62,142 nucleotides of DNA, taken from positions 1 to 62,142 of the forward strand of contig JAPOYM010000071.1 of NCBI GenBank assembly GCA_026706565.1. The letters run 5' to 3'. Positions 5,958 to 53,099 of this stretch are shown here, in pieces. This DNA comes from a bacterium (GTDB taxonomy: Bacteria > Actinomycetota > Acidimicrobiia > Acidimicrobiales > CATQHL01). Position numbers and translations under genes: made by a program. Under the pieces are notes generated by a model, which saw nothing but the letters and a program-made list of their open reading frames with translations, did no database searches and was not told the origin of the DNA. Numbering within the stretch: position 1 is the first letter of the stretch; each line of letters opens with the position of its first letter.

Positions 5958-5958
5958 G

Positions 5959-34562: not shown

Positions 34563-34831
34563 GCCGGCGATGCTAACCGCCCCGGTGAGCGCCCGGTACC
34601 GAGCTGTTGGACGCGATCTGCTGCACGACCTTTGATCCACCCCAGGCGCGACTCGGTCTGGGCGGCGAAAGGTTTGTGTCTGTCCTTGCCCTCTCCGGCC
34701 CCCTGGACCGAGTCGCGCCTCCTGAAGGTCGAGACCCACATACCAGATTGGGAGGTTCCGCCCATGAACCGAGACTCCGCCGACCAGCCGGTCCTGGCCA
34801 ACTCGGTCGGGGCCGTGATCCGTCCAGGGTT

Positions 34832-34847
34832 TGGACTGACTTTGCTG
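34832..34847 (+). promoter_or_regulatory. -24/-12-like motif copy 1: TGGACTGACTTTGCTG
   Basis: TGGAC-N5-TTGCTG, 83 nt upstream of the small ORF at 34930. Confidence 0.35.
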
Positions 34848-35112: not shown

Positions 35113-35122
35113 GGGGACGCCC

Positions 35123-35138
35123 TGGACGCGCCTTGCTG
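35123..35138 (+). promoter_or_regulatory. -24/-12-like motif copy 2: TGGACGCGCCTTGCTG
   Basis: Same motif, also sharing TTGCTGTAGG with copy 1. A 10-bp perfect hairpin follows. Confidence 0.35.
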
Positions 35139-35185
35139 TAGGCATCTCAGCGCCGCCATCGGTGTGGACAACCCACGGCTGATGC

Positions 35186-35211
35186 GAGCTGCGGCAGGGC
35201 GGCCGCAGCTC
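35186..35211 (+). terminator. perfect 10-bp stem / 6-nt loop hairpin (GAGCTGCGGC-AGGGCG-GCCGCAGCTC)
   Basis: Complementarity checked base by base. No U-tract is present. It lies 48 nt after motif copy 2. Confidence 0.3.
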
Positions 35212-35257
35212 ACCTGATCTCGAGCGACGCACTCCGTTCGCCGCGCCGCCCAACCCT

Positions 35258-35273
35258 TGGACGCTGCTTGCTG
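35258..35273 (+). promoter_or_regulatory. -24/-12-like motif copy 3: TGGACGCTGCTTGCTG
   Basis: Same motif, 102 nt upstream of the small ORF at 35375 and 278 nt upstream of the gene at 35551. Confidence 0.35.
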
Positions 35274-35374: not shown

Positions 35375-35446
35375 ATGGCCGCCGAAGACGAGAAGCCCAG
35401 CGCGCCGGTCGACGTGGACACCATCCCCGCCGGCACGTTCCACTAG
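35375..35446 (+). CDS. 23-aa small ORF (MAAEDEKPSAPVDVDTIPAGTFH), hypothetical
   Basis: Strong SD AGAAAGGAGGG lies 6 nt before the ATG. There is no homology evidence. Confidence 0.35.
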   Translation: MAAEDEKPSAPVDVDTIPAGTFH

Positions 35447-35550
35447 CCCCCGCGGCGCCGGACGCACACGCGCCCGGCGCCGCCCCCCAACGTCCGCTCC
35501 GTCCATCGGAGAGAACCGTCACTCCAACTCCCCAGAGAAAGGAAAACCGA

Positions 35551-37665: not shown

Positions 37666-37670
37666 CCCCG

Positions 37671-39284
37671 ATGGCCGCAACAAGACGCTGGAGCCGCGTC
37701 CGAGAACTCGCCCGCCGGGCCGACCGGCAGCACGAGTCCCCAGCACTCGGTCCCAGCGTCCGCCCCACCGACACGCACCTCGCCGGGGGCCACCCACGCG
37801 TCCGCGTCGTCGGTCCCAGCGACGGCCGACGGGACGCGGTGCGGATCGCCGAGCCGGCGTACACCGAAGCCATCGCGTCGCTCGGCGGTCTGCCCGCCGA
37901 AGCGGGCGGGCCCCTCGGCGGCGACCACCGCACGGGCATCGTCTCAGAGTTCTACCTCGACGAGTCCGCGCGGCGCGACGAGCACAGTTACTCCCCCGAC
38001 GTAGAGACCCTGAACCGGCTCTTCCGCACACAGTGGAACCCCCGGGGCCTATCTCTGCTCGGCTTCGCGCACTCGCACCCCCCGGGCGTGCCGGTGCCTT
38101 CGACCGGCGACCGGCGATACGCCCGAAGACTCCTCGCCGCCCTTCCCTCCCTGGACCGACTCCAGCTGCCCATCGTCGAACAGTCCCGCGTCGGCAACCA
38201 CATAGCCCGGGGTTTCGCCGTCGTCGACGACGGTTCATCGCTGCCGGCGGCGCAGCGAGTCTCCCTCGACACGGTCCCCGACTGCCCGACGCGCCGCGAG
38301 CCCGACCCCGCGACGTTCCTCCGAGCCTCGACCAGCTACGAGTTGGCGATCATGGCCAACACCCGCGTCGTGCTCGTCGGAGTCGGAGGGGCCGCCCAGC
38401 ACGCCGAGCACTTGGCGCGGTGCGGCATCGGCGAACTCGTCCTCGTCGATCCGGACCGGGTGGAGCCCCCGAACGTTGCAACCCAACAGGCCTATCTGCG
38501 GGACGCGGGGCGATCGAAGGTCGGCGCCCTCGCCGAACGCCTCACCGACATCAGCCCAATCCTGCGCGTCGCCGCGGTGCCCCACAGCGTCCAACAGCTA
38601 GATCTCCCGACACTGCGAATGCTGCTGCATCGGCCGTTGTTCCCCGGCGAGCCGATCGCTCCCAGACTCACGGTCACATGCGGATTCACCGACGACTTCT
38701 GGACGCAGGCCGAGGTCGCTCGCATCGCGTTGCAGGAAGGCACACCCCTGCTCGCGGGCCAAGTCTACGAGCAAGGATGCGGGGCGGAGATCGTCTTCGT
38801 GGCGCCGGGCCACACCGCCGCCTGTCACCGATGCGTCCTCGGCTCTCGCTACTACTCCTATCTGGCCGGGTTCCGCAACGACGTCACCAGCGCCGGCGCA
38901 CCTCTGTTCGCCACCGAGAGGCTCAACGCAACCAAAGCGATCGTGATGATGGCGATGGTCCACGGACTGCACCCCGACGCGGACCGCGGCCACCCCGCCA
39001 CCGCGAGATTCTCGACGCTGTTCGAGACCATCCGCGAGCGGAACCTCATCCAGATCCGCCTCACCCCTGACTTCGAGTCGATCCTCGGCGTCAGCGTCTT
39101 CGAGCGCACACTCACCGGCGCCGACAGCACACGCGTCGTCTGCGACGAGACCCTCTGGCACCCCCAGACACCGACTGCCCATCCCCCCTGCCCCGATTGC
39201 GGCGGCACCGGCGACCTCGCACAACTCGCCGGCACCAACATCGCCCCCCTGACGCGACCTGAGAACACGGAGAGGACACCATGA
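37671..39284 (+). CDS. JAB/JAMM metallopeptidase fused to an E1-like (ThiF/MoeB-family) adenylation domain
   Basis: The JAMM motif is intact: E(AGGPLGG)...HSHPPGVPVPSTGD, which fits HxHx7Sx2D (38070-38111). E1 Rossmann VVLVGVGGAAQH...LVLVDPDRVEPPNV. Cys pairs CHRC and CPDC. Confidence 0.8.
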   Translation: MAATRRWSRVRELARRADRQHESPALGPSVRPTDTHLAGGHPRVRVVGPSDGRRDAVRIAEPAYTEAIASLGGLPAEAGGPLGGDHRTGIVSEFYLDESARRDEHSYSPDVETLNRLFRTQWNPRGLSLLGFAHSHPPGVPVPSTGDRRYARRLLAALPSLDRLQLPIVEQSRVGNHIARGFAVVDDGSSLPAAQRVSLDTVPDCPTRREPDPATFLRASTSYELAIMANTRVVLVGVGGAAQHAEHLARCGIGELVLVDPDRVEPPNVATQQAYLRDAGRSKVGALAERLTDISPILRVAAVPHSVQQLDLPTLRMLLHRPLFPGEPIAPRLTVTCGFTDDFWTQAEVARIALQEGTPLLAGQVYEQGCGAEIVFVAPGHTAACHRCVLGSRYYSYLAGFRNDVTSAGAPLFATERLNATKAIVMMAMVHGLHPDADRGHPATARFSTLFETIRERNLIQIRLTPDFESILGVSVFERTLTGADSTRVVCDETLWHPQTPTAHPPCPDCGGTGDLAQLAGTNIAPLTRPENTERTP

Positions 39285-39619
39285 CCACCGTATTGGAGAA
39301 CATCAAGTACCGAGCCTCGAACGGTGAGGACTTCATGTTCGACTTCGAACTGCGCGACGACGGTTGGCGCGTGCACATAACCAGCCAACCCCGCTACCGC
39401 CACCGGAGCGCGAGCGCGCACGACACTCACCGCCTCGGCCGGGCTGAACGTCCCTACATCTGCTGGACCAACCCGATAAACGGACTCGACGACGCCTTCG
39501 GCGTCGCCGCCCTGTGGGCGGAAGCGACCCTCGTGTACATCGCGACCGGTCGCTTCAACGCGCCGCGCCGCTTACCGCGACTCCACGATCTCACCGGACT
39601 CACCCGGCTCAGCCGCTAG
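39281..39619 (+). CDS. small conserved-looking protein, possible E2(UBC)-like with HDTH...PYICW
   Basis: ATGA overlap with the JAB-E1 gene. 112 aa. The H-x-x-H...x-I-C-W spacing recalls HPN...C of UBC folds. The call is weak. Confidence 0.3.
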   Translation: MTTVLENIKYRASNGEDFMFDFELRDDGWRVHITSQPRYRHRSASAHDTHRLGRAERPYICWTNPINGLDDAFGVAALWAEATLVYIATGRFNAPRRLPRLHDLTGLTRLSR

Positions 39620-39652
39620 CCCCCGATCAATCCACCCCGAAAGGACGATCCC

Positions 39653-40381
39653 ATGGCCCGTCAACGCCCCACCCTGTTCCTCGAGACCAACGACTGGGAC
39701 ACTCACACCGCGCCGCGCCGATGGTTGGCCGTGATCCCCGTCATCGCGCTGGTCGTCGCCGCCGCCGCCATGTGGCAGCTCAACCGCCCCGAGCCGATCG
39801 GGGCGGCCTCGACCCTGCCGGTCTGCGACTCTGACCACCCGCACCTAACCGTTGTTGTCCTCGATGTCTCGCCGTCGGTGATCAGCGCGGACGGCGCCGA
39901 CCCCGACGGTCGCAGCTTCGACGAAGCCCGAGAGCTCGCGCGGCTGCTTGCCGCCGACCCCTGCACCCCCGACGACCGGTTCGCCGCCATCGTGTTCGGC
40001 GCAGAAGCGATTCTGCAAATGCCGCCGACACTGCTGTCGCAGAGCAGCGACATCGCCGCCGGCCTCCGCAACCAGGGCTACGCCAACCTCGGGGACTCCA
40101 CCGACATCTCAGCCTCAATCCGCACGGTGGACTCCATCGCATCCGATCATCCGCACCACGAACTCTCAGCCATCTGGCTCTCAGACATGATGGGAGACCC
40201 GTTCACCGAACAACACCTCCGAACCCTCGCCGCCGAGCACGCCTACCTCGTCGCGCTCGGTGACTACGACCCGTACTTCAACCAGTACTTCGACGCAGTC
40301 CACGAGATCGTCACGGTCAAACCCGGTGCCGTCGCACACGCACTCACCGAGAGCATCTCCCGCACCCGCGGCGCGCCCTGA
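39653..40381 (+). CDS. membrane-anchored von Willebrand factor type A (vWA) domain protein
   Basis: N-terminal TM (WLAVIPVIALVVAAAAMW). MIDAS-like VVVLDVSPSV (DxSxS at 39863-39877). Further vWA strands: AAIVFG and AIWLSD. Confidence 0.65.
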   Translation: MARQRPTLFLETNDWDTHTAPRRWLAVIPVIALVVAAAAMWQLNRPEPIGAASTLPVCDSDHPHLTVVVLDVSPSVISADGADPDGRSFDEARELARLLAADPCTPDDRFAAIVFGAEAILQMPPTLLSQSSDIAAGLRNQGYANLGDSTDISASIRTVDSIASDHPHHELSAIWLSDMMGDPFTEQHLRTLAAEHAYLVALGDYDPYFNQYFDAVHEIVTVKPGAVAHALTESISRTRGAP

Positions 40382-40434
40382 CCACCAACCACCGAACATC
40401 CAGCCACCAGACGCGAAAGGAAACCTCCACCGAC

Positions 40435-41781
40435 ATGAATTGCGCCAACATCCCGCGCCTCATCCGCAGCACCGCGATCGCGTCCGCAGTCGCCGTCATC
40501 GCGCTCGCCTGCGACCCCGATCACGCCACAACCCACGACACCAGCCCGGCCGAACGGGTCGCCGAACAGGCAGGCGAACAGGCAGCCGGCACCGTCGCGG
40601 CCGGCAGGACCGCTCTTCCCGAAGCGGTCGTGCTCCCCACCGGAATTCCCGGCATCAGCGAACTCACTCCACCAACACCGGACACCGTCGTCCCGCCACC
40701 CCCCGACCCCGCACCGGCGGCGCCCACAAGCGACCCCCCCGTCGTCCCGCCACCCCCCGACCCCGCACCGGCGGCGCCCACAAGCGACCCCCCCGTCGAC
40801 CGCCCACCGCCGACGTCCGCAACCGAACCGGATGCACCCCCGGTCGCCCCCGACCTTCCGCCATCCACGGCCGGACCGCCCGAGCCCGCGCCCCCGCCAC
40901 CGCCCGCAGACCCCGAACCCCATACCTGCGTCGCCTACCGCATAGACGACGTGCTCTTCAACAGCGCCGCCGCGGAACTCGCCCCCGGCGCCGAGGACAG
41001 CCTCGCCGCCGTCGCCGCGCTAATCGCCGACGACGCCCGAGTCTCCGTCATCGGCCACACCGACTCGCTGCCGTCAGCGATCGGCAACCAGCGACTGTCC
41101 GAACTCCGCGCCCAGACTGTCGCCGAGGCCCTGATCGGCGCGGGCCTGAACCCCGAATCGGTGACCGAGATCGCCGGCAGAGGCGAAACCGAACCCATCG
41201 CCGACAACGGCACCGACGAAGGCCGGCGCCTCAACCGGCGCGTCGAGGTATACATCAACTGCGCCGCCCGACAACACCGAAGCGCCGCGTCCGAAGCAGG
41301 CCGAGGCAGCGCCGCTGCGAACCCGACCACCCCCGCAGACCCGACGACCGACGACCCCGAGGCCGTGCCAGCGGGCCCCAGAAGCGAACCCGAGGCCGAT
41401 ATGCTAGGCATGGTCGGCGAGTTCCGAGCGGACCTCGAACTGCAGCCACTTCTGCACCATCAACAGCTAGCATCCGTCGCCCGTGCCTGGTCAGCCACAA
41501 TGGACACAACCGGACGGCTAGAGCACAATCCTGACTACACAAACCAGTATCCCACGGGTTGGCTGTCAGCTGCCGAGAACATCGCGTTCGTAACAGTACC
41601 CACAACCTCACCAGAATCGCTCGCAGAGGCAACCATGATCGCCTTCCAAGGACTTGTCAACAGCCCACCGCACTACAAGAACCTCACCAACCCGACGTTC
41701 ACCCACATAGGAATCGGCATACACCTAAGCACCGATACCCTGTGGGTAACCCAGAACTTCGCGCACTATCCACCCGAATAG
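40435..41781 (+). CDS. lipoprotein with Pro-rich linker, OmpA-family peptidoglycan-binding domain and C-terminal CAP/SCP (PR-1-like) domain
   Basis: Lipobox IALAC. OmpA_C motifs: VIGHTDSLPS..GNQRLSELRA..V and NRRVEVYI. CAP motifs: HNPDY, NIAF, SPPHYKNL, THIGIG. Confidence 0.75.
   Translation: MNCANIPRLIRSTAIASAVAVIALACDPDHATTHDTSPAERVAEQAGEQAAGTVAAGRTALPEAVVLPTGIPGISELTPPTPDTVVPPPPDPAPAAPTSDPPVVPPPPDPAPAAPTSDPPVDRPPPTSATEPDAPPVAPDLPPSTAGPPEPAPPPPPADPEPHTCVAYRIDDVLFNSAAAELAPGAEDSLAAVAALIADDARVSVIGHTDSLPSAIGNQRLSELRAQTVAEALIGAGLNPESVTEIAGRGETEPIADNGTDEGRRLNRRVEVYINCAARQHRSAASEAGRGSAAANPTTPADPTTDDPEAVPAGPRSEPEADMLGMVGEFRADLELQPLLHHQQLASVARAWSATMDTTGRLEHNPDYTNQYPTGWLSAAENIAFVTVPTTSPESLAEATMIAFQGLVNSPPHYKNLTNPTFTHIGIGIHLSTDTLWVTQNFAHYPPE
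40687..40794. repeat. perfect 54-bp tandem duplication (18-aa VVPPPPDPAPAAPTSDPP x2) inside the linker
   Basis: 40687-40740 is the same as 40741-40794 by eye. Confidence 0.85.
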
Positions 41782-41786
41782 CCACC

Positions 41787-44700
41787 ATGTCACCCAGCGC
41801 CTCGTCGCGGCTCGACCAGCACCACCTCGCATCGCTGCACAAACTCACCGACGAGCACCTAATCAAGCTCCTCAATGAGATCCTTCCGCTGAAATGCGCT
41901 CACGGCTCCGTCGAAGCGGAACGCCTGGAATGGCATGACCCATGCTGGGAGACACGCCCCGCCTTGAAGCGCGTGCGACGATTGTCCCTAGAACTCTCCG
42001 TCAACAACCCCAACGGGCGTAGCCGTAGCAGGGTCACCCTGCCGTTTCTCTGGCCATTGGGCGAGGAGGCTTGCGCCGAACCGTACCCGCTAGAATATGT
42101 GCGCCTCGGCGGCCCTGCGACGTTCATCGACGCGCTACCGAAGGTGGCGGTAAGCCAAAGAACGTACCGTCCCGGGTTGCACTTGTTTCGTCACGATTTC
42201 CGCTACTCGGGTCGTCAATATTCGGGCCGACGACTAGTTCTTATGCCGGACATCGGCCCGAGCATACGAATCTACAAAACAAGCATCGGACGAGATCAGA
42301 CAAGCAGTGAATTCGACCCAGCTCCAGACGACCACGCGCCTCCACTCGCCAAGTCGCCCCCAAGGTCGTCGTTCCGAGTGTCGATCTATGGGCTAGGAAG
42401 CGGGACAGCTGTCTTTGAGAATGCCGAACTCATTGGTTGCGCCGATTCCGGCCAGACTCGCGCGCCTCACGGGACGCCCCATACCGCTAACCTAGGGGCC
42501 CTCTGTGATCGTCTCCTAGGACAGAATCGACCCCCCTTGGCATTTTTCTCGGACGCGACAAGGGAGCGGATCTCCGAAGCGGGAATACGACTCGACGATT
42601 CCAGCTTACAGGACCTATGCGGCCTCTTGTTCAGCTTGGATAAGGATGGAGCTGAACCTCCGGAGTATGGACATGAACTCTCCGAAGCGACTCTCCGGAC
42701 GCAGCACCACGGCGACATACTGGAGTCGATTCTTGTGGAATCGCTGCTAGCGGCTGTGGAGCGATTCCATCTCGGCAAGCCCGATCAGGCCGCGGCGCTC
42801 GGCTCTCTACTGAAGTCCATGTTCCAGCAGATTTACAACCGGATGCATCGCGGCGGAGACCGCCAGCCTGCACTGCTGGTGACCGACGACGACCGTAACA
42901 CGCTCGCCAACCTCGAGGCCCGGCGAAAGACGACTCGATACAGTCCCGAGATTCCCCGAGAGATTCGGTACTGGCTCTGGACCCGTGACATCGACCCAAG
43001 CGACCGTCGCCGTCTCTGCCCGCTCCAAACTCCCGAGTCAGCCGACCTTGGATACGTGCGATTCTTGGCCCTCGGAGATGGATATGCCGACGAGCACTCA
43101 GGGATCGCCGATCTTGACGCGCCCGACTTGGACCTTGACTCGAGCGACTTGAGCGCCGCCGCCTCGCTCATTCCGTTCATCAATCACAACGACCCGACGC
43201 GCTCGGCCATCGGCTCAAAGAACCTGAAGCAGGCGCTGCCACTCGCAGGGGCGAGCGCGCCGCGAATCCGGTCGGGCACCGAAGCGGCCCTCGCCGAAGC
43301 ACACGGCACGGCCCGTCTGCCCGCAGGGCCCGACGCGACTGTTCTAGAGGTATTCGAGGACCGGATCATCGTGCAGCGCCAGGAAGGCGCCCCGCGTGGG
43401 GCGGAAGTCCTACCGTTCGGCTACCCGCACCCCACCGGCCACACCGCCGACGGGCGCTGGAAACTGCTCACGACACCCGGCGACACCCTCAGCGCAGGAA
43501 CCGTGTTCGCGCACGCCCCCGACGTCGTCATCGACTGCGGCGAACCCACTCTCGCTCTCGGCACCGACGTGCTCGTGGCGTTCACGCCCTGGTTGGGGAT
43601 GAACTACGAGGACGCCATCGTCGCCAGTGAGGCTGTCGTCGACCGGATGGCTTCGTTGCATTCTCTTCGCATCACCGAGCCGCTCGGCGCCTATGAGACT
43701 CTGCGGCCGTCGGTCGAGGCGGGTGCCGAGGTCGTCGCCGGCGACGAACTGCTGAAGATCCTCGGCCCCGACTCGAAGACGCGTCGCTCCGTCGTCGCCC
43801 CCGAGTCCGGAGTCCTTGAGGAGGGCCCGCGCGTCGAACCGGTCATCGGCCCTCGTGAGAGCGGTGACAGTGACGACGCGGTCTCGGGCGAGATCGTCAT
43901 CCGGCTCAGGACCAGCAGGCGTCTCGCGGTCGGGGACAAGCTAACCAACCGCCATGGCGGCAAGGGGGTGGTTTCTGCGATCCTGCCCCCATCGAGCATG
44001 CCGAAACTCCCCGACGGACGCCACGTTGAGATGATTCTCAACCCGCTCGGAGTGATCCGGCGTTTGAACATCGGCCAACTGTTTGAGACCCATGAGAGCC
44101 TGCTCGCCGACCTCGAGGAGGGCGGACCCCGCATCGTCGGCCGCCGGATGAGCCCGCAGCGTCGGGGCGAACTCGCCTCCGCCCTGGCCGAGCGTGGCGC
44201 CCCGGGCGGGCGGCTGGTGCTGGAATGCGCCGACGGCACCGTGCTGGACCGCCACGGCGGCGTTGTCGCGGGTTGGCAGTACATGCTGAAACTGGACCAC
44301 CTGGTGGCGGACAAGCGCAACGAGCGTCTCGCGGCGTTCGCCGGGCCGCGCGACCGGCAGCCCGTCCGCGGCTCGACGTTCGCCGGCGGCGTCCGGCGGG
44401 GAGGCGCCAAACGTTGCGGCGAAATGGAGATCTGGGCCCTTCGGGCCAAGGGCGCATCAGAGTTCTTGGATGAGACCCTCACTGCACGCAGCGGTTTCGC
44501 CCCCGGCACGAATCCCACCCTCGCCAGCGTCGACGCCCACCTGAGAACTGCCCAACTCGCTGTTGACCACACCACCGGGGCGGTCAAGCTACTGGACGCA
44601 CGAGACACCAAGGCCCTGGCGCCCGTCATCTGCGAGGAGATCACCGAACCTACGACGAACACTCCCCAGTACGCCTCCGCCGCCAGCCACGGCCTCTACC

Positions 44701-47222
44701 GCCCCGATTGCCACGGTGACTTCGAGAAGGCCGGAGCATCTTGTGCCTGCGGTTCCGTGTGGCAATCCGGCGCCAGATGCGCGTCCTGCCACACGACGCC
44801 CCGACCCGACCCACACCCGGAGCGCTTGGCGGTGCGATACCACATCAAGTTGCCGGCACCGGTGAAGCATCCGTGGTTCCGGCCGTCGCCGAGTCAAGGC
44901 GCAAGCTCTTGCGTAGCCTCGCGCATTCATCGCGAACACCGCCGGGCTGCCGAGCTCGAGCACCTGTGCTGTGCGAATCATGATCCGGACGTCGTTCGGC
45001 ACCGTGACGAGAACGGTCGATCCTCCGCGCTCGAACGCGTTCGGGAATCGCTCGCCGAAGAGGGTCACCAACCGATTGCGATGACCCACGACTGTCGTCG
45101 CGCGCGATTGTACGTGTTCACCGACCGTGGCCGACTCGCGGAGTTCGACCTTGCCGAAGGCGCGGCGGGGGACTTCGTGCGGGATTGGTTCATCGAGCAC
45201 CGACGCGCCGGGAATCCCGAATTGCCCCCGGATGATGTCCAGTTCCTTGCGCTCGAACCCAACGGATTCCCGGTCATCAACTACGGCAAGGACGACCAGA
45301 GCAGGGATATTCTCCGGACCGCCACTCCGGCGTTGCACGTCGTTCCGATACTGCCCCCGGCCTATCGCAGGTTCGGGTACGAACCCCTTGACACCCTCTA
45401 CGAGCGACTCATCCGTCTAGTCGCTCTGGTGGAAGAGAACCGAGAGGCGGCAGTGATGGGGGTGGAACGGCAACTTGTTCGGGCCATCCTCGGCGGACCG
45501 ACCGACAAGCCGGATCACGGCACCATTTCCGGTCGGCTGAACGGCAAGCACGGCCTGATTCGCCGTGGACTGAGAGGACGGCACAACAACTCTGTCGCCC
45601 GAAACGTCATCACGCCCCAGACAACGCTCGGCCTCGAGGAGGTCGGGCTGCCGTCTGGCACCATGGCGGAGCTCCAACTCCGCGACGGGGACGTCGTTGT
45701 CGTCAATCGCCAGCCCACCCTACGCCCATCGAACGTCGTGGCGCTACGCGCCAGGGCCCACGACGGTGACCACGTCGCACTTCACCCAATGATGTCGAAG
45801 CAGTTGGCCGGCGACTTCGACGGCGACGAAGTCACGTTGCACTGCCCCAGCGACGGACAGGTGGCGGTCGACACCTGGAGGCGTCTCAGACCTACGAGCG
45901 AACTCCTCAACGACACCGATGGTCAGCCCACCATGGCGCCCGACCTCGACGTCGCCCTCGGAGTCCACCTTCTCTCGATGTCGGATGCCGGTCGCGTCGA
46001 ACTCTCGAAGCTCCTGGACGGTGGCGAGCAGCCGGCCGGCAACGGGTCAGCCGGAGTCGAGTCCGCTGTCGGCGCGGACCAAGCCGTCGAACTGGTCCGG
46101 GCCGCCTACAGTGCCCTCGCAATCGATCCAGAACGCGACCCTTGCGCGGTCATCGAGGCGCTCTTCGAGGCGACGACCCGCGCCTGCCTGGGTTGGTCCG
46201 CTTCGCTGCTCGACGACGCGTTCCTGGAAGACGGCGCGCGGCTGAGGATGCTGGAACGTACCGGCAACGACGAACTGGACGGTCCTCGGTCCGACTGGCT
46301 CGACGAGGCGATCGCAGCAGGCGTCGCGGGAGGGGCAGGCGGTCTGCGCCAACTATTCGTCGAACGCGGCAGCCTCCCGACCTTCACACCCGGCAAGTCG
46401 ACGCCGCGAGTCGGGTCGTGCTTCCTCGACGGCCTCTCGTCCGGCGACGTCTTCGCGACAGCTCCCGGGGCGCTGGCCGCGCTGGTCCAGAAGAAGCTCG
46501 TGACGCCTCAGGCAGGACACGTCACAAAACGGCTGGCAGACGCGCTGTACGACTTTGTCGTGGCAGCGGAGGATTGCGGCGTCGGGCCCGATGCCACAGG
46601 ACACCGCGACGCTCTTCATTGCGCCCTCGACGGATCTTGCTGCGCGGCGTGCGTCGGCCCGCTCCCCTCGGGCAGGAGCGCAGATGTCGGGGATTTCATC
46701 GGGCTGCGAGCCGCGATGCTGATCGGCGAACGCTGCACCCAGAAAGCCATGAAGACCTTCCACGGAGGCGGCACCAGCGACGACGTCCGCGGCATTGTGC
46801 CCGAACTCGAGGCAGCGTTCGGCTTTCGCGCCAACCACCCGCAGGAGTCAGGGCTCTCGTTCAGGGACGCATTGAAGGCCGACGATCCTCCAGCGACGCT
46901 ACGCCGTCTCGCCGGACAGACCGCCGCGGCCCTCGATGGCGGCGTGCATGAATCCTTGATCTGCATAGCTCTGAGGCGGGTACACGACCTCGCCCGACAA
47001 GCCGAAGCGGAGGCCGCTGTCGGTCCGCTCCCTCGGGTGCCCGCAGGACCGAACAACCAAGCCGCCAGAGCGAATCCACTCCTGCACGCATCCACCATTG
47101 GGCACCTTCGACCCATCCTGGATTCCGTCGAATGGCCGGTACGCCACGGCCCTTCCGGCCAGCAGTTGCGCGATGCCTACTGGCCCGTCGCCCGTCCTGC
47201 CCGACCCGAAGCCAGGCGGTGA
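41787..47222 (+). CDS. single-chain RNA polymerase: fused, shortened beta (RpoB-like) + beta-prime (RpoC-like) homologue, 1811 aa
   Basis: Beta motifs occur in canonical order: KVAVSQRTYRPGL (cf ERVIVSQLHRSPGV), CPLQTPESADLGYV (cf CPIETPEG.NIGLI), SLIPFINHNDPTRSAIGSKNLKQALPL, NYEDAIV, GDKLTNRHGGKGVV (43932-43973), LNPLGVIRRLNIGQLFETH, YMLKLDHLVADK and CGEMEIWAL. Beta-prime motifs follow: Zn ribbon CHG..CACG..CASC, HIKLPAPVKHPWF, VPILPPAYRRF, NGKHGLIRRGLRGRHNNSVARNVI, NRQPTLRPS, AGDFDGDEV (DFDGD at 45813-45827), a bridge-helix-like GHVTKRLADALYDFVVAAEDCG, and a trigger-loop-like LIGERCTQKAMKTFHGGG. Confidence 0.85.
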   Translation: MSPSASSRLDQHHLASLHKLTDEHLIKLLNEILPLKCAHGSVEAERLEWHDPCWETRPALKRVRRLSLELSVNNPNGRSRSRVTLPFLWPLGEEACAEPYPLEYVRLGGPATFIDALPKVAVSQRTYRPGLHLFRHDFRYSGRQYSGRRLVLMPDIGPSIRIYKTSIGRDQTSSEFDPAPDDHAPPLAKSPPRSSFRVSIYGLGSGTAVFENAELIGCADSGQTRAPHGTPHTANLGALCDRLLGQNRPPLAFFSDATRERISEAGIRLDDSSLQDLCGLLFSLDKDGAEPPEYGHELSEATLRTQHHGDILESILVESLLAAVERFHLGKPDQAAALGSLLKSMFQQIYNRMHRGGDRQPALLVTDDDRNTLANLEARRKTTRYSPEIPREIRYWLWTRDIDPSDRRRLCPLQTPESADLGYVRFLALGDGYADEHSGIADLDAPDLDLDSSDLSAAASLIPFINHNDPTRSAIGSKNLKQALPLAGASAPRIRSGTEAALAEAHGTARLPAGPDATVLEVFEDRIIVQRQEGAPRGAEVLPFGYPHPTGHTADGRWKLLTTPGDTLSAGTVFAHAPDVVIDCGEPTLALGTDVLVAFTPWLGMNYEDAIVASEAVVDRMASLHSLRITEPLGAYETLRPSVEAGAEVVAGDELLKILGPDSKTRRSVVAPESGVLEEGPRVEPVIGPRESGDSDDAVSGEIVIRLRTSRRLAVGDKLTNRHGGKGVVSAILPPSSMPKLPDGRHVEMILNPLGVIRRLNIGQLFETHESLLADLEEGGPRIVGRRMSPQRRGELASALAERGAPGGRLVLECADGTVLDRHGGVVAGWQYMLKLDHLVADKRNERLAAFAGPRDRQPVRGSTFAGGVRRGGAKRCGEMEIWALRAKGASEFLDETLTARSGFAPGTNPTLASVDAHLRTAQLAVDHTTGAVKLLDARDTKALAPVICEEITEPTTNTPQYASAASHGLYRPDCHGDFEKAGASCACGSVWQSGARCASCHTTPRPDPHPERLAVRYHIKLPAPVKHPWFRPSPSQGASSCVASRIHREHRRAAELEHLCCANHDPDVVRHRDENGRSSALERVRESLAEEGHQPIAMTHDCRRARLYVFTDRGRLAEFDLAEGAAGDFVRDWFIEHRRAGNPELPPDDVQFLALEPNGFPVINYGKDDQSRDILRTATPALHVVPILPPAYRRFGYEPLDTLYERLIRLVALVEENREAAVMGVERQLVRAILGGPTDKPDHGTISGRLNGKHGLIRRGLRGRHNNSVARNVITPQTTLGLEEVGLPSGTMAELQLRDGDVVVVNRQPTLRPSNVVALRARAHDGDHVALHPMMSKQLAGDFDGDEVTLHCPSDGQVAVDTWRRLRPTSELLNDTDGQPTMAPDLDVALGVHLLSMSDAGRVELSKLLDGGEQPAGNGSAGVESAVGADQAVELVRAAYSALAIDPERDPCAVIEALFEATTRACLGWSASLLDDAFLEDGARLRMLERTGNDELDGPRSDWLDEAIAAGVAGGAGGLRQLFVERGSLPTFTPGKSTPRVGSCFLDGLSSGDVFATAPGALAALVQKKLVTPQAGHVTKRLADALYDFVVAAEDCGVGPDATGHRDALHCALDGSCCAACVGPLPSGRSADVGDFIGLRAAMLIGERCTQKAMKTFHGGGTSDDVRGIVPELEAAFGFRANHPQESGLSFRDALKADDPPATLRRLAGQTAAALDGGVHESLICIALRRVHDLARQAEAEAAVGPLPRVPAGPNNQAARANPLLHASTIGHLRPILDSVEWPVRHGPSGQQLRDAYWPVARPARPEARR

Positions 47223-48268
47223 CTGAATTGATCACCTCCGGAGTGCGAGCGGGGCGCGACCGGCGACGCAGCGCAAAGCCAGACACCGATGCTCTCACAC
47301 AACCGAACGCTCGCCGCCTAGCTCGAGTCCTGGTATCCACTATTGCTTCACCGACTGCACACGAGATCCAGCACCTCGATAGCGACGAACCGCTTGATGA
47401 CGATCCCTTGGATATGGTGCCCGACGGCTGGGAGGACGAAGAGCCGGATGCTCCGACGGCCTTCGACGAGGCGTCGCCGACGGCCTCGGGCCGCACTGCC
47501 CCACCCACAGCGGTTCTTGAGTTCTTCGTCCGCCCGGGGCCGCTGTCGGATGTCGCCGTCGAGGTGAACGCTCCGCTGCCCCAAGAGCATCACCTCGGAG
47601 TGGCTGGGCTTCCGCTGGTTCAAGCCGAATGGTTGGAACGACGTCGACACCTTGAGGCCGTCGGCGTCTGCATCCTGAACCGTCAACTACCCGCCATTCA
47701 GTCGACCGACCCGCGTCATGCCTACAGATCCTTGCGCCCGATGACCAACGCTGATTTGAACGAATCCGCTGGCACACGCGGCTCGGGCTGGGCTTCCCGC
47801 AATCGGACGGCTCCGGTCGCCTGCCCCTGGGGCCTCGTTCGACTGGAGTTCTTCACTTGGGGGATCGGTCCCGGACGCGTCGCCGTGTACGAAGCGCTGC
47901 TCAACGCTGTGTTGATTGACGGCGCTGCCGGTGGAGACACCGCCATCGCCCGCGACGCGCGCGACCAAGCCATAGCGGCTCTCGAAACATCGTCCGACTC
48001 TGCTCTGAGGCAGTCGACGCTCTCAGAGCAGGCACGCACGCAGCTCCCAGCTCTCGACAGCGTCCGTAAGTTGGTTTCCGTCGCTCGTTCGCTGGGAGCA
48101 CCTCAGACCTCCGCCTACATCGCGACCCTTCGACGCGACTCATTGTTCTGGAGCGACGACCTAATCGGAGCTAACGCCATGCTCGCCTCATCGCTTAGCG
48201 ACAGAGGCCTCCAGTTGGCAAGGTTCGCCGTGGCTGGATGGGAGGGGGGCAAGCAGTGGATGCCTTGA
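47219..48268 (+). CDS. sigma-54 (RpoN)-like protein, divergent and shortened (349 aa)
   Basis: GTG at 47219 overlaps the polymerase stop (GTGA). There is an acidic N-terminal segment. LERRRHLEAVGVCILNRQ, LRPMTNADLNE and SRNRTAPVACPWGLVRLEFF align by eye with E. coli RpoN LEARNDTLLRVSRCIVEQQ, MKPMVLADIAQ and [22 protein letters not shown]. Confidence 0.7.
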   Translation: MTELITSGVRAGRDRRRSAKPDTDALTQPNARRLARVLVSTIASPTAHEIQHLDSDEPLDDDPLDMVPDGWEDEEPDAPTAFDEASPTASGRTAPPTAVLEFFVRPGPLSDVAVEVNAPLPQEHHLGVAGLPLVQAEWLERRRHLEAVGVCILNRQLPAIQSTDPRHAYRSLRPMTNADLNESAGTRGSGWASRNRTAPVACPWGLVRLEFFTWGIGPGRVAVYEALLNAVLIDGAAGGDTAIARDARDQAIAALETSSDSALRQSTLSEQARTQLPALDSVRKLVSVARSLGAPQTSAYIATLRRDSLFWSDDLIGANAMLASSLSDRGLQLARFAVAGWEGGKQWMP

Positions 48269-49833
48269 CGATCGACGCGCCAGGCAAGGACTTGAGCGTC
48301 GCGATAGATCAAATCAACAATGGCGACCCACTTGAGGTCCGTCTTCGTTGGAACGACGAGCACGCCGAGCAGTTCAGCGAACTGTTGAAGGTCGCCGATG
48401 AGAACCGGGTCTCCGTCACCGTAGAGTTCGACACACTCCGGCCGAGCCATCTCTCCGATGTGATCTTCCGCTACCGGTACCCTCGGCCCGCGGTCACCGC
48501 CAAGAGGAACGTCACCGACGAGCGCAATCTCGCCATCGGCAGCACCCTACCGATGCCGGCTGACCCTCTCGACTACGAGAACGCGCGCGGAATGTCGCTG
48601 GTGTCTGAGGCCATGCAGGAGTTCATCCAGGAGCTGCGTGATGCGTTGTGGGTTATGCGAGCACATAAGCAGGCCCCGAGGATGCCGTGGGATCCGTTGG
48701 ATGGACAGAGGTCGGATATTCGTTACGCAAAGGACAACTCCCCCACCCTTCAGGATTGGGGCTTCCCCAATCTCTCCGCGGTCTTCGAATGTTACAACGA
48801 GAGGAATCGGGGCCACCTCCGGAGGCTCTTCGGCCATGCCAACGACGGTGTCCGACCCAATTCGGCCCGCGAGCCGGGGTGGGACTGGAACATCAAGCTG
48901 CTCGTGACAGGCGACAGCGGCACCGGCAAGTCGCTCGTTGCTCGCCTTGCACACCGCGTGCTGTACCCCGACGACCATCACAAACGCTATTTCGCTCACC
49001 TGAACTGCAGCACCCTCGACGCGCAGAACGCCGAGTTCGAGATCTTCGGCGCCGCCCCCGGCACCTACACCGGCGTCGACCATCGGGTCGGGGCCTTGGC
49101 GAGAGCCGCCTACGGCACAGCGTTCCTAGACGAGTTCGGTGACCTGCCCCCAGGGACTGGGCCGATTCTCCTCACCTTCTTGGACGATCTTCTGGTCCGG
49201 CCACGAGGGATGATGCAGTTCTTCTCCTACAGCTACGTGGTCGCCGCCACGAATCGCGACCTGAGCGCCCGGATACGAGCCGGCGAGTTCCGAAACGACC
49301 TAGTCCAACGCTTCAGCCGCCGCATCGAGGTGCCCCCACTGCGCCGCCGCGGCCGAGCCGAGATCCTGGCCCTAGTGGACATGGCCTGCCAGAACCCCAT
49401 CGAGAACCCGATCGAGACCTTCCGAGGAAAAGAAGGCCGAGCAATAACCGAGGTCGCCCCGCCTGCCCTCTCCATGCTCGCCAGCCACGATTATGCCGAC
49501 GGCAACGTCCGAGAGCTAGAAGCGATCACACACCAGGCTATCCAACGAGCAAAGCGCCGAAACTCCTCGCTCATCGAGCCGATTGATCTCGACATTCCCA
49601 AGCATCCGAATTACCGCCCCGACGCCGACCAGAACGTCATCCGCGTAGGCGCACTCCCCGACCTGGATCAGCAAGTCGAGGTCGAGAGTCTCCAAGACAT
49701 CGCCCATCTAGCCCAACTAACACGCCAACCGCTCCTACAAGCACCCGACAACACGTACGCCGTCATCCATGGCAGCACCGGATACTACTACCGTCCGCCT
49801 CGGCCCCGTCCCCTGCCATTTCGACACGAGTGA
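48256..49833 (+). CDS. bacterial enhancer-binding-protein-like AAA+ ATPase (sigma54-interaction domain) with an unknown N-terminal domain
   Basis: SD GGAGGGGGG lies 6 nt before the GTG at 48256 (alternative ATG at 48238). Walker A GDSGTGKS (48910-48933), GTYTGV in the GAFTGA position (49060-49077), Walker B AFLDEF, AATNRDL, FRNDLVQRF...VPPLRRR, and GNVRELE sensor II. Confidence 0.8.
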   Translation: MDALTIDAPGKDLSVAIDQINNGDPLEVRLRWNDEHAEQFSELLKVADENRVSVTVEFDTLRPSHLSDVIFRYRYPRPAVTAKRNVTDERNLAIGSTLPMPADPLDYENARGMSLVSEAMQEFIQELRDALWVMRAHKQAPRMPWDPLDGQRSDIRYAKDNSPTLQDWGFPNLSAVFECYNERNRGHLRRLFGHANDGVRPNSAREPGWDWNIKLLVTGDSGTGKSLVARLAHRVLYPDDHHKRYFAHLNCSTLDAQNAEFEIFGAAPGTYTGVDHRVGALARAAYGTAFLDEFGDLPPGTGPILLTFLDDLLVRPRGMMQFFSYSYVVAATNRDLSARIRAGEFRNDLVQRFSRRIEVPPLRRRGRAEILALVDMACQNPIENPIETFRGKEGRAITEVAPPALSMLASHDYADGNVRELEAITHQAIQRAKRRNSSLIEPIDLDIPKHPNYRPDADQNVIRVGALPDLDQQVEVESLQDIAHLAQLTRQPLLQAPDNTYAVIHGSTGYYYRPPRPRPLPFRHE

Positions 49834-50511: not shown

Positions 50512-50522
50512 GTTAGACGAGT

Positions 50523-53099
50523 TTATAGGGTTGGCTCAGCCATCTCCGCAGTACCACCGTGAGGGGCACTACCACGTTCCAGGTTCAAAACCCAAGCACC
50601 GACATCAGCGCGCGGCTGCGCTATTTCATCTCGCTGGTCATGCCATTGATGCATGTCCCCACTAGCAGACCCATGAGAGCCACTATCAGGCAACCCATCT
50701 GTTTCTTCCGCTGTCGCGTCTTCGGGAAGCCATCGTCCATAGTCGGACTTACTCCACTCTATCAAATAATTCAAGGGGTGTGGGGGATTCGGGCGTGGGA
50801 TCTCACTAATCTCAGCGTCCAGGCTCTCCAAGTAATTGCCCACACGCACTCCCTTAGGTTCCCATGGACGCGCGCCCCAGACCATATCGAAACCAAGACC
50901 GCTAACGCCAAGACCCTCAAGTCCCGCGTCGAGTCCCGCCTTTATCAAGCCGCCAAGCGTCGTGCTTGGAATCCAATTCCCGTCAACTTCGTTAAATGCC
51001 GCCGCCACCCACTCAAGGACATGCCCCTTAGCCTCCTCGCTGTTCCACCAGTCTCTCGCCGCAATCTCGCCGAATCGTGCCCTGTGCGCTTCAAGCCAAG
51101 ACGAAGCGCCTTCCCATCGAATTCGACCCTGCGGAGGTTCAACTTCATGGCGACTCTTCTTGACTCCAACATCTAGTCCACTCAGGTATTTGTGAAGAGC
51201 CTTGCCGCTCCCCGGCTTATCCCATGGCGGTTCGAATGGCGCCGAGCCAGAGCGACTACGATTAAGCGACTCTAATTTATGACGCAGGCTCTTGCCGAGC
51301 TCTCCGGGAGCAACCCCTTCGCTGGCATCTCTGCCTTGGAATTCCATGGCAAGCCAATATAGTATCCAGTCGCCACGCGGTATCCCAAGCCATTGTTCTT
51401 CACCTGGCTCGTCAGATCCCTCGTACATTAGATCCGCTGAAGCGGTCGAGTTCTCGCCGCCCTCCTTCGTTTTGGCGGTTACGGAATGCGATAGCGACTG
51501 ATCTGATACTGATTCCATTCTCGAGTATTCCGACGTTGCTTCGCGTGGATATAGTTTGCCCTCTTCGGATGTCGTAATCCCAGACAGTTCGGAAGGCCTA
51601 TTCGACCTCAGTGCCTCCTTATCAGCAGTCCCGGCAATATCAGACTTGTCTTTGGAGGCGTCGTGCTCCGGCTGTGCTCCACTTTCGCCACTCGTAACGC
51701 GAATCACTACCTCGGAGGCGTCGCGCGGCAGGTAGCCTCTCAATGGCTCCTCGCTCATAGGAAACTTATTCAACTCACGCTCAAGGAATTCCTTCATGTC
51801 GTTTTCGATGTCGGTCCTAACGTGTTTGTGCTTTTCATGACCGGTAAGGTCATCGGCCGGCGTTATCTGGATCGTGAGCTGATTGCCCTTATCCATCCCC
51901 GTCCCCTCCACAAATTTGACGCCGTATGCCTTGACTCGCTTATGCTTCTCCATGTGAGACTGCTGGTCTTTGATGTACTCGAAGTAGCCGCTAACATCGT
52001 CAGGGATCTTGCCAACAAATTCGTCGAACCACCTAACGTAGATATCGATCATTGAGTTAAGGTCGTTATGTTTTCCCAACATTTCGAGGATCATCTTGCT
52101 GTGGGCAGTAGCTTGATCTAGTTCAGCTGGATTATCAGCCGGACGCGTAAGTAGTTCCCGGACCATGCAGACGCGGAACTGAGCGCGACGCGTGTCCAGG
52201 TCGTCGCGGGTTCGGTGTTCACCCAGATCTACGGCGTCGGCGAGTCGAAGAATCGCCAGTAGTGTCTGAAAGGGCTTATAGTCGGCACCGCCGTGCTGAT
52301 TTTGAACACTTGCAACGTGCGTTTTCCAATCGTCGTGGAGTGAGTTTACTGTGAGCTTATATTGTACGACCAAGTTATGCGGTTTGACGTTTACATTCGA
52401 CCACCAACCCGCTGTGCTGCTAGGGCTCTTGTGTACTGCGTGAGGCGACAGCTTATCGTCTTCGTAGGTGATGTAATGCTCGCTACTACAGGAAGTCCAT
52501 CCTTGATGATGGGCACATAAAATGCCTGCGGGTACAGTTATCTCGTCTGCGTCTATTGGTATCGGACTTCCAGAAGAGCGTATCTCGAAGTTGTCAATGC
52601 CGTGAAGACTCTTCCAGTTAGGATTGAGCCAACTTTGCGATAGAAGTCCATGAAGTCGACGCACTTGGATCGAATGTGAAATCCAGCGTAGTTGCTTATC
52701 CTCTCCCTTTAGCACGCCGCCGCAATGGCCCCAGTCATGCAGCCACGAGGCCACTGACAGCCATACTAACTCAATGGGTTTGAAGTGGAGCTTTTTCCCT
52801 GGCTGCCAGTGCGGCTCAACAATCTCTGCCGCTAGGCGTTCTACGGACTTTGCGTGCTCCTCGTCGTGCGCAACTAACTCTGGGGCTAAGTTAACTGACC
52901 AGAGATTATTGTCGTGCCAAGTTTGGAGCCATTGGTCAAGCATCTCTGCGTAGGTTCGCAGTTCCGCGACGGTTGTGGCGGAGTCTTTGTCGCCGTCATC
53001 ACGGAGTCGGTCCGCGTTCTTGCTAAACAAGCGGGCAAACGCTGATCTGGGAGCGTCAACACGTTTGGATAAGTGTTGTTCCTTGGAGTGCTCAGACAT
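50523..53099 (-). CDS. HD-domain protein (N-terminal HD phosphohydrolase-like domain, long unknown middle, repeated C-terminal module)
   Basis: HDEEHAKSV, WLHDWGH, CAHHQGW and LRLADAVDLGEHR give an HD-superfamily pattern. 858 aa in an AT-richer segment. Confidence 0.7.
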   Translation of the reverse strand: MSEHSKEQHLSKRVDAPRSAFARLFSKNADRLRDDGDKDSATTVAELRTYAEMLDQWLQTWHDNNLWSVNLAPELVAHDEEHAKSVERLAAEIVEPHWQPGKKLHFKPIELVWLSVASWLHDWGHCGGVLKGEDKQLRWISHSIQVRRLHGLLSQSWLNPNWKSLHGIDNFEIRSSGSPIPIDADEITVPAGILCAHHQGWTSCSSEHYITYEDDKLSPHAVHKSPSSTAGWWSNVNVKPHNLVVQYKLTVNSLHDDWKTHVASVQNQHGGADYKPFQTLLAILRLADAVDLGEHRTRDDLDTRRAQFRVCMVRELLTRPADNPAELDQATAHSKMILEMLGKHNDLNSMIDIYVRWFDEFVGKIPDDVSGYFEYIKDQQSHMEKHKRVKAYGVKFVEGTGMDKGNQLTIQITPADDLTGHEKHKHVRTDIENDMKEFLERELNKFPMSEEPLRGYLPRDASEVVIRVTSGESGAQPEHDASKDKSDIAGTADKEALRSNRPSELSGITTSEEGKLYPREATSEYSRMESVSDQSLSHSVTAKTKEGGENSTASADLMYEGSDEPGEEQWLGIPRGDWILYWLAMEFQGRDASEGVAPGELGKSLRHKLESLNRSRSGSAPFEPPWDKPGSGKALHKYLSGLDVGVKKSRHEVEPPQGRIRWEGASSWLEAHRARFGEIAARDWWNSEEAKGHVLEWVAAAFNEVDGNWIPSTTLGGLIKAGLDAGLEGLGVSGLGFDMVWGARPWEPKGVRVGNYLESLDAEISEIPRPNPPHPLNYLIEWSKSDYGRWLPEDATAEETDGLPDSGSHGSASGDMHQWHDQRDEIAQPRADVGAWVLNLERGSAPHGGTAEMAEPTL

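Follow-up and report, generated by a model that had tools for sequence, protein, structure and literature searches.

Examination of a 62,142-nt contig from an Acidimicrobiales bacterium (JAPOYM010000071.1, assembly GCA_026706565.1; the whole contig is referred to as the window) revealed a gene for a fused beta/beta-prime RNA polymerase (RNAP) of 1811 aa. The gene is an intact open reading frame (ORF) at 41787..47222 (+ strand) whose catalytic residues are, with one exception, invariant in the family, and it is followed by genes for a divergent sigma-54-like protein, here called X, and for an AAA+ ATPase of the bacterial enhancer-binding protein (bEBP) type. A strongly enriched, bipartite promoter-like motif recurs upstream of operons of the same islands. 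We propose that the fused polymerase, X, the ATPase and these promoters probably constitute an orthogonal, ATP-gated and self-amplifying transcription module of a conflict-type island. An earlier note on this DNA had described the polymerase and its sigma-54-like neighbor; the linked AAA+ activator and the promoter-like motif are additions to that finding.

The + strand open frame extends from 41559 to 47222, and its first ATG, at 41787, yields the 1811-aa product. This ATG lies 6 nt past the stop codon of the upstream gene, an independent assembly encodes an 1811-aa protein that is 99% identical to the window polymerase (P0001/P0048), and conservation among homologues begins at about residue 7 in an alignment of 25 members, drawn from a family set of ~25 homologues of 1477-2077 aa. 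These three observations support the start at 41787. The corresponding NCBI record (MCY3785956.1) is a hypothetical protein of 1459 aa that starts 352 codons later; the region removed by that start is a family-conserved N-terminus, modelled as the beta lobe and protrusion. Two homologues (P0002 and P0003) were likewise called short, which left a false 400-nt "intergenic" region that is 89% identical between loci L084 and L085. We rejected these 400 nt 5′ of the L084 and L085 polymerase genes as a promoter region; they are probably mis-called N-terminal coding sequence and uninformative on promoters.

Pfam domains occur along the polymerase in the order Rpb2_6 (residues 696-862, E 3e-39), Rpb2_7 (873-902), Rpb1_2 (1295-1355, E 9e-15) and Rpb1_5 (1549-1666). 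When the 25-member profile was compared by HHalign with housekeeping beta and beta-prime alignments that included E. coli, residues 9-916 matched E. coli beta 27-1309 (E 2e-83), residues 939-1665 matched beta-prime 25-942 (E 6e-71), and the C-terminal residues 1678-1780 matched beta-prime ~1200-1347, which is the region H core (79% probability). Because the two main matches end and start there, the beta/beta-prime junction lies at residues 916-939 (nt 44534-44601). The beta-like module (residues 1-916; 41787..44534, +), supported by HHalign, AlphaFold2 and Foldseek, comprises the lobes, fork, double-psi beta-barrel (DPBB), a reduced flap and the C-terminal part of the clamp. A linker (residues 917-938; 44535..44600, +) occupies the gap between the HHalign matches, has a low predicted local distance difference test score (pLDDT), and leads into the beta-prime-like module that HHalign defines (residues 939-1811; 44601..47222, +). 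The earlier note had read the gene as a single-chain beta plus beta-prime in canonical order with a junction near 44.64 kb; Pfam, HHalign and the conserved catalytic residues bear out this order, and the junction falls close to that position.

The same note had called the enzyme shortened and had expected some peripheral parts to be missing, and the alignments agree. The beta module lacks E. coli beta 258-336 (SI1), parts of 585-647, 893-913 (the flap tip), 939-1035 (SI2) and 1126-1177, while the beta-prime module lacks beta-prime 822-878, SI3 and most of the region past the trigger loop, including most of the jaw. Lineage-specific insertions (SI1, SI2, 1126-1177 and SI3) thus account for most of the shortening, and the flap tip and most of the jaw/post-trigger-loop region are lost in addition. 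The clamp-helix region, which binds sigma, is seemingly kept in short form. An AlphaFold2 model of residues 1-1000 (pLDDT 72.6, predicted template modeling score (pTM) 0.73) found its best Foldseek match in bacterial beta (Thermus thermophilus 9fo6_C, E 1e-44, TM-score 0.60 spanning ~1100 columns, 20-23% identity), and viral beta-like proteins matched more weakly (best E 4e-26, TM-score 0.49, 11-13% identity). By both sequence and fold, the polymerase is closest to bacterial beta/beta-prime and not to archaeal or viral enzymes. The profile alignments and model matches therefore identify a trimmed bacterial-type beta plus beta-prime, and not a YonO-like remnant.

The catalytic residues are conserved across the family. 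Equivalents of E. coli beta R678, E813, D814, K1065, K1073, R1106, H1237 and K1242, and of beta-prime R425, D460, D462 and D464, are invariant in 25/25 members. Within the window polymerase, the beta NYEDA motif (43602..43616, +) carries E608 and D609 (E. coli E813 and D814), the beta catalytic motif GDKLTNRHGGKG (43932..43967, +) carries K718 and K726 (K1065 and K1073), and the Mg-binding loop AGDFDGD (residues 1341-1347; 45807..45827, +) carries the aspartates D1343, D1345 and D1347. The N-terminal Zn ribbon of beta-prime (C986, C988, C998 and C1001, equivalent to C70, C72, C85 and C88; 44742..44789, +) occurs in 15/25 members, and the second Zn site (C1597, C1612, C1619 and C1622, equivalent to C814, C888, C895 and C898; 46575..46652, +) in 24/25. 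The bridge helix (~residues 1552-1589; 46440..46553, +) corresponds to beta-prime 769-806. The trigger loop (46683..46826, +), which aligns to beta-prime 910-942 and lacks SI3, includes IGERCTQKAMKTFHGGG and then VRGIVPELEAAFGFR; it reads AMKTFHGGG ahead of the latter, with the second helix taken directly from the sequence, and M1655, K1656 and H1659 are equivalent to M932, R933 and H936. Family members have Met (22/25) or Leu (3/25) at the Met932 position and His (17/25) or Gln (8/25) at the His936 position.

All four elements named in the earlier note (i.e., the Zn ribbon, AGDFDGD loop, bridge helix and trigger loop) were located by alignment to E. coli. Its broader statement that every catalytic hallmark is present held for the residues that are invariant in 25/25 members and failed at the Asn of NADFDGD (E. 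coli N458), which is Ala in 22/25 family members and Asn in 1/25. The equivalent of beta-prime R731 is Ala in 20/25 members. The rifampicin pocket is not conserved in sequence, and its H526 equivalent varies. By residue conservation, the polymerase is a catalytically intact bacterial-type fused core, with activity predicted.

To place the polymerase in its genetic context, we compared the loci of twelve homologues (L001, L002/L003, L084-L091, L262 and L263) and one metagenomic locus reached through its ATPase (L103). L003 has the L002 arrangement on a second contig, and L262 (7 kb, encoding P0023) ends inside the gene that follows the polymerase. Polymerase, X and AAA+ ATPase follow one another in that order on one strand in 13/13 loci with readable downstream DNA, the window included, and the stop and start codons of the triad usually overlap. 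X proteins are 250-430 aa long and lack a Pfam domain, and the ATPases are ~480-810 aa long with a Sigma54_activat domain. In the window, X (349 aa; 47219..48268, +) starts at a GTG at 47219 that overlaps the polymerase stop by 4 bp (GTGA).

The window X is made up of an acidic N-terminal part, a core resembling the extra-long helix (ELH) and helix-turn-helix (HTH) of sigma-54, and an RpoN-box-like end (RFAVAGWE). Across the family, X shares a variable, acidic N-terminal region with a PDGWE motif, a block W.SR.R..LV.CPWG.VPL.FF.W and a C-terminal RG.EL.RFAVAGW. We compared the X profile with a nine-sequence sigma-54 alignment from E. coli and plasmid-borne rpoN genes. It matched sigma-54 325-405, where the extra-long helix ends and the HTH follows (STISR..KY..TPRGIFELKYFF), with 90.5% probability and E 1.4e-6 (75% and E 2.5e-5 upon re-alignment with 12 sequences), while reversed sigma-54 and three unrelated alignments used as controls gave E 0.14-0.7. 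The C-terminal RG.EL.RFAVAGW is colinear with the RpoN box (ARRTVAKYR), a match that is non-significant alone (E 0.13-0.3). Sigma54_DBD was the top weak Pfam family among X members (2/11, best E 0.004). These profile and Pfam results agree with the earlier description of the downstream gene as the polymerase's own sigma54-like gene. We regard X as a sigma-54-like factor that is drastically reduced and evolves fast, and that falls under formal family thresholds. Its divergence also limited database searches: protein searches by word matching, whether with X itself or with its profile, returned almost nothing, as did a HMMER search of 1.84 billion representatives with profile A3, which is dominated by one clade, and comparison of the X profile with PDB sequences gave no meaningful match.

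The third gene of the triad (48238..49833, +) encodes a bEBP-type AAA+ ATPase of 531 aa, with an N-terminal domain of ~215 aa and a Sigma54_activat core (Pfam E 8.6e-28). Its ATPase motifs are all conserved (Walker A GDSGTGKS, Walker B FLDEFGD, R-finger FRNDLVQRF and sensor II GNVRELE), and a loop reading PG.YTGV occupies the position of GAFTGA in the L1 loop. A Tyr at the GAFTGA Phe position is known in a few natural bEBPs (PMC7057263). The N-terminal domain and a C-terminal region of ~90 aa are conserved and peculiar to this ATPase, and no HTH family was detected in it by Pfam or motif alignment. In L263 (15962-18394 and 20971-22941), the activator is longer (810 aa) and has extra domains; a TIR protein, a JAB-ThiF protein, an AAA_2 ATPase and a DUF87/TrwB-type ATPase are encoded nearby.

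Short-word BLASTN among the island intergenic regions of different loci uncovered a shared motif, for which 21 sites gave the consensus ytTGGACGC-nnn-TTGCTgtag. The motif resembles sigma-54 promoters in being bipartite (GG...GC), with TGGAC and TTGCT blocks like their TGGCAC and TTGCW, and differs in its GG-N9-GC spacing, which is 1 bp shorter than that of TGGCACG-N4-TTGCW (GG-N10-GC). A version with N6 spacing, which we tried first, gave only noise. Four tandem sites, three exact and one with a mismatch, precede the operon that holds the polymerase: TGGACGCGATCTGCT (34608..34622, +; 1 mismatch), TGGACTGACTTTGCT (34832..34846, +), TGGACGCGCCTTGCT (35123..35137, +) and TGGACGCTGCTTGCT (35258..35272, +). 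The window contains 3 exact copies of TGGAC-N5-TTGCT compared to 0.06 expected, all on the + strand at 34832-35272, and 0/100 shuffles reached 3. The window shows no enrichment of the canonical sigma-54 consensus (15 found, 21.6 expected). In the twelve other loci (276 kb), 9 exact copies were found compared to 0.36 expected, and the maximum in 200 simulations was 3.

Scanning 625,000 positions with a weight matrix placed every site of at least 19 bits in an intergenic region, facing the next gene; since the 21 sites behind the matrix come from these same loci, the scan is no independent test. Ten of these high-scoring sites lie 40-61 nt ahead of a start codon. Among the targets downstream are the JAB-E1 operon, the lipoprotein/vWA/OmpA operon and large effector-type genes, and in L088 the polymerase gene itself. 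In L089, which belongs to a distant clade, four copies of a co-varied motif (CGGATGC-N3-CGGCAT) keep the same spacing. A 1-bp change in spacing is known to inactivate sigma-54 promoters. If this rule holds here, the sites would be orthogonal to host sigma-54 because GG and GC are 1 bp closer.

Homology, catalytic-residue conservation, strict gene linkage, and the enrichment, position and co-variation of the motif are observed; from them we infer that the three proteins are physical partners, that the motif is used as a promoter, that transcription is gated by ATP and feeds back positively, and that the system acts in conflict or defense, as follows. The fused polymerase would work with the products of the two genes that always lie 3′ of it. 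X would bind the fused core and direct it to the bipartite TGGACGC-N3-TTGCT promoters. Once its N-terminal domain is triggered by a signal, the ATPase would use its GAFTGA-like loop and spend ATP to convert the closed complex to the open complex. The promoters would drive the island operons, whose products are envelope proteins, large effector-type proteins and a JAB/E1 module for ubiquitin-like conjugation. Because promoter-like sites precede the operon with the polymerase, X and ATPase genes, we propose that activation is self-amplifying. The output would be an envelope, ubiquitin-like and effector program directed against phages or other elements that runs independently of the host polymerase. 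That such a complete orthogonal system sits on rare islands and stays silent until triggered (for instance, as an immune alarm that survives phage shutdown or hijack of host transcription) is a tentative suggestion.

Several observations weigh against this proposal. The window X falls under the Pfam Sigma54_DBD gathering score (i.e., no match), region I and the core-binding domain were not detected in X, whose N-terminal half does not match sigma-54 1-250, and AlphaFold modeling of X from a 6-sequence alignment gave no usable fold (pLDDT 36). The binding of X to the polymerase or to the motif is predicted from linkage and sequence. No motif of the TGGACGC-N3-TTGCT form was found in L090 or L103 or upstream of the HD-CE gene of the window, and the repeated element of L091, which has the most divergent X, is a different one. 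None of the island genes resembles alpha or omega. Replacement of the Mg-loop Asn by Ala could mean an altered substrate chemistry. Accessory status is an inference, and separate rpoB and rpoC genes in the same genome are predicted, the window being one contig of a metagenome-assembled genome (MAG). Finally, the defense role is proposed through guilt by association.

If the genome had no other rpoB and rpoC, which is conceivable for a single MAG contig, the fused polymerase could be its sole housekeeping RNAP, akin to those of Helicobacter and Wolbachia and shortened in a streamlined lineage. Fused rpoBC genes are indeed known as housekeeping enzymes (NCBIfam equivalogs NF007172 and NF011417), but we consider this reading extremely improbable. 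The polymerase scored 227.7 bits against a cut-off of 896 for rpoB, 108 against 963 for rpoC, 215.5 against 5372 for the Helicobacter-type fusion and 203.6 against 4632 for the Wolbachia type, which places it ~4- to 25-fold under the rpoB and fused-rpoBC equivalog cut-offs (25-fold for the fusions). Mean identity between the family and housekeeping enzymes is 32% over 869 well-aligned core columns; the housekeeping cores of Proteobacteria, Actinobacteria, Chloroflexi, Bacteroidota, Firmicutes and CPR bacteria (the candidate phyla radiation) share 61% with one another. Phylogenetic placement against cellular enzymes, a check suggested in the earlier note, put the family outside all sampled housekeeping enzymes in a neighbor-joining tree, and the polymerase has lost its flap tip. 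In L085, which offers the strongest comparison, the flanking genes for dihydrodipicolinate synthase and nucleoside deoxyribosyltransferase are 92% and 85% identical to those of the window, whereas the polymerases are 52% identical and other island proteins 27-61% identical over aligned parts, and the island is placed across the deoxyribosyltransferase gene from its position in the window. Since a housekeeping polymerase should exceed its neighbors in conservation, this difference argues that the enzyme is not a housekeeping one. It sits in a variable island with JAB/E1, OmpA and HD-CE genes and not in a ribosomal-protein or rpoBC neighborhood. The family is also extremely rare, with ~25 clusters, all unnamed, among 5.8 billion proteins. 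When 185,579 species genomes were scanned with peptide patterns derived from the family alignment (DFDGD..., NYEDA...), which are generic, 80/80 of the returned loci were housekeeping rpoB-rpoC operons of other species (at most 34% identity), so that neither family members nor taxonomy were obtained. The low scores thus confirm that the polymerase is divergent, and its faster evolution than neighboring housekeeping genes within a variable island favors the description of it as accessory.

Three further explanations concern what the enzyme does and for whom. It could serve an integrative element or defective prophage for the element's own expression program, as YonO does, and not host defense. 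The island position differs between related genomes, a low-GC segment is present, a tyrosine integrase gene lies directly upstream of the outlier P0023 and an rve integrase gene beside L090, and several loci contain faint matches to TrwB- and DUF87-type ATPases. Precedents exist in YonO, which serves SPbeta late genes (PMC5467207), and in jumbo-phage RNAPs (PMC7598289). However, no capsid, terminase, tail or conjugation-pilus Pfam families occur among the called genes of the 13 loci, and most loci lack an integrase. The family was also absent from 50,697 INPHARED phage records, 72,556 PLSDB plasmids and IMG/VR at the sensitivity used, where searches returned only housekeeping or generic homologues. 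We therefore regard this explanation as unlikely; it bears on biological role only and is compatible with the same molecular mechanism. A second explanation is that the fused core borrows host sigma-70 or sigma-54, alpha and omega, with X acting as a DNA-binding regulator and the AAA+ protein as an ordinary bEBP on host sigma-54. The lack of a recognizable core-binding domain and region I in X, the likeness of the motif to canonical sigma-54 promoters and the seemingly retained short clamp-helix region would fit. Yet the helix at the flap tip, which sigma-70 region 4 uses, has been deleted, the motif varies together with the X clade and has a spacing expected to inactivate host sigma-54 promoters, the window shows no enrichment of the canonical consensus, and the three genes are strictly linked with translational coupling, all of which make this very unlikely. 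The enzyme might instead make another product, such as RNA-templated RNA, DNA-containing products, or short signaling or primer RNAs. The loss of N458 and of beta-prime R731 in most members speaks for this. In bacterial and yeast RNAP structures, the Asn of NADFDGD touches the ribose of the incoming NTP; since this contact is lost, sugar discrimination may be relaxed. DPBB relatives (such as eukaryotic RNA-dependent RNA polymerases and YonO) are likewise not known to have an Asn before the aspartate triad. Against it, the other substrate and template contacts are kept (R425, beta R678, K1065, K1073, R1106, H1237, and the trigger-loop Met and His), the lobes, clamp, bridge helix and trigger loop together give the overall architecture of a complete transcribing enzyme, and a sigma-like factor and promoter-like sites accompany it. 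We judge a different product to be highly improbable.

The proposed transcription module can be set against known systems. The polymerase shares with RpoB/RpoC the fold, region order, two catalytic barrels, Mg loop, bridge helix, trigger loop and both Zn sites. It differs in being a single chain with a 916-aa beta and ~870-aa beta-prime part (1342 and 1407 aa in E. coli), in lacking SI1-SI3 and the flap tip, in its trimmed jaw and C-terminal region, in having AGDFDGD in place of NADFDGD and ~32% core identity, and in being rare and island-encoded. Helicobacter and Wolbachia RpoBC (NF007172 and NF011417) join beta and beta-prime in the same order, but they are full length (~2840-2890 aa) and the cell's only polymerase, while the enzyme described here has 1811 aa and an accessory context. 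YonO of the SPbeta prophage is a single-peptide RNAP of ~100 kDa, homologous to multisubunit RNAPs (msRNAPs), with few shared catalytic residues and no trigger-loop homology (PMC5467207). Like the window polymerase, it is a beta/beta-prime relative in one polypeptide, does not belong to the core genome and serves a particular set of genes. Unlike YonO, the window enzyme is ~200 kDa, retains nearly all conserved regions including the trigger loop, and has a sigma-54-like partner and an AAA+ activator. Jumbo-phage non-virion RNAPs (PMC7598289) are also non-host, msRNAP-type enzymes with their own promoter specificity; they are split over several polypeptides, phage-encoded, and matched the beta model more weakly than bacterial beta did. 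The X-ATPase pair has counterparts in sigma-54 and bEBPs, through the ELH-HTH-like core and possibly the RpoN-box-like end of X, and through the Sigma54_activat core and possibly the GAFTGA-like loop of the ATPase. Small size (250-430 aa), undetected region I and core-binding domain, and a score under the Pfam threshold set X apart from sigma-54; absence of a DNA-binding HTH, unique N- and C-terminal domains, and a partner polymerase that would not be the host core set the ATPase apart from bEBPs. We know of no jumbo-phage RNAP that uses sigma-54/bEBP logic.

All parts are of known kinds (msRNAP, sigma-54, bEBP and -24/-12 promoters), and as far as we could establish, their combination is undescribed: a single-chain minimal core, a private activator, a reduced sigma-54-like factor that is likewise private, and promoters with a shifted spacing, all on a chromosomal island. 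A metagenome scan added two loci to the family. Phage enzymes aside, bacteria are not known to use a second multisubunit RNAP beside the one that sigma factors reprogram. If our proposal is correct, a chromosomal second polymerase that has a sigma-54-type factor, an activator and a promoter grammar to itself would provide bacteria with a naturally orthogonal transcription system, and would tie dedicated transcription to ubiquitin-like, TIR and HD effector systems. The polymerase would be a natural minimal enzyme of ~1800 aa in one chain that presumably works without a flap tip, lineage insertions or encoded alpha and omega. X, with no detected region I or core-binding domain and with promoter spacing shifted by 1 bp, would be a natural experiment on sigma-54 function, and a compact, ATP-gated and self-contained set of polymerase, sigma and promoters would be attractive for synthetic biology. 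Full-text literature searches, and Kaur et al. 2020, yielded no description of the system; a prior mention in Iyer and Aravind 2012 (J Struct Biol) is possible.

Past the four promoter-like sites, the window encodes a 60-aa ORF, a 23-aa ORF and then a tightly packed gene string that runs from 35551 through the ATPase gene with all gaps at most 53 nt. Ahead of the polymerase, this string (all +) consists of a membrane protein, g1, with features of about four transmembrane segments (35551-36810), a lipoprotein-like protein, g2, with lipobox-like features (36859-37665), a JAB+E1 protein identified by Pfam (~37647-39284), a 112-aa protein (39281-39619), a vWA-like protein with an N-terminal anchor (39653-40381) and a Pfam-supported OmpA+CAP lipoprotein (40435-41781). 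Downstream and convergent with the triad is an 858-aa HD-CE domain protein (Pfam; 50523..53099, -), a recurrent partner within a low-GC stretch. HD-CE proteins are also found in L084, L086 and L089, and the L085 homologue (969 aa) has no recorded Pfam match. The accessory gene set of the window recurs in other loci in shuffled order; E2-CBASS, TIR, nSTAND, LRR and ATP-grasp genes are present in addition at some of them, and others sit among GmrSD and restriction endonuclease (REase) genes. PADLOC flags the E1 and JAB parts as defense-type and has no model for the polymerase or X, and Rfam found nothing in the window.

Minor features of the window include the two small ORFs. The 60-aa ORF (34930-35112, +), ~85 nt 3′ of the second promoter-like site, has a hydrophobic, signal/lipobox-like N-terminus (LLLYLAIGRGGC). 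The 23-aa ORF (35376-35447, +; MAAEDEKPSAPVDVDTIPAGTFH) has a strong ribosome-binding site ~100 nt past the fourth site; intergenic regions of L002 (8296-8539) and L085 (2582-3047) retain DNA coding for its C-terminus (IPAG(T/S)FH), and the ORF is a candidate for a small conserved peptide that belongs to the system. GC content over the HD-CE gene (50000-52000) falls to 0.54, compared to 0.68-0.74 in the flanks, which suggests that this gene is possibly a separately acquired effector cassette. A STAND-like ATPase gene (AAA_22, AAA_35 and NPHP3_N; 53590-55188, +) adjoins it, and paralogous AAA_14+DUF4143 ATPases flank the island (31029-32306, -, and 55291-56553, -). The stretch from JAB-E1 to OmpA-CAP (38000-42000) has a strong compositional strand bias, with a GC skew of -0.17 to -0.26 and an AT skew of up to +0.29, far larger than in the rest of the window.

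Other loci showed further repeats and a possible trace of mobility. In L087, an identical 32-nt promoter-like element (CTGTTGCGGACTGGTTTTGCTGTAACGGGATT) occurs in inverted orientation at 2923 (-) and 3282 (+), each copy ~60 nt before one of two divergent genes. L091, the most divergent locus, is low in GC and lacks the GG/GC motif. Its upstream repeats are of two kinds (6668-6769, 7907-8151, 9778-10000 and 17186-17265): the polymerase gene and gene 6770 are each preceded by CAAATTCTG.AA.CTTC.GACCAC, and two further genes by CACAAAAAATTCTTAAT; these elements may be promoters of a different specificity. P0023, the family member nearest to housekeeping enzymes in the tree, is encoded in L262 at 1436-6175, directly 3′ of a tyrosine integrase gene at 256-1404, and this position hints at a mobile-element origin for its branch at least. 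CA-rich tracts (CCAACCAACC-type repeats) precede a gene for a ~390-aa membrane protein in several loci (L001 8699-8760, L002 7071-7170, L086 6911-7049 and L087 5814-5926).

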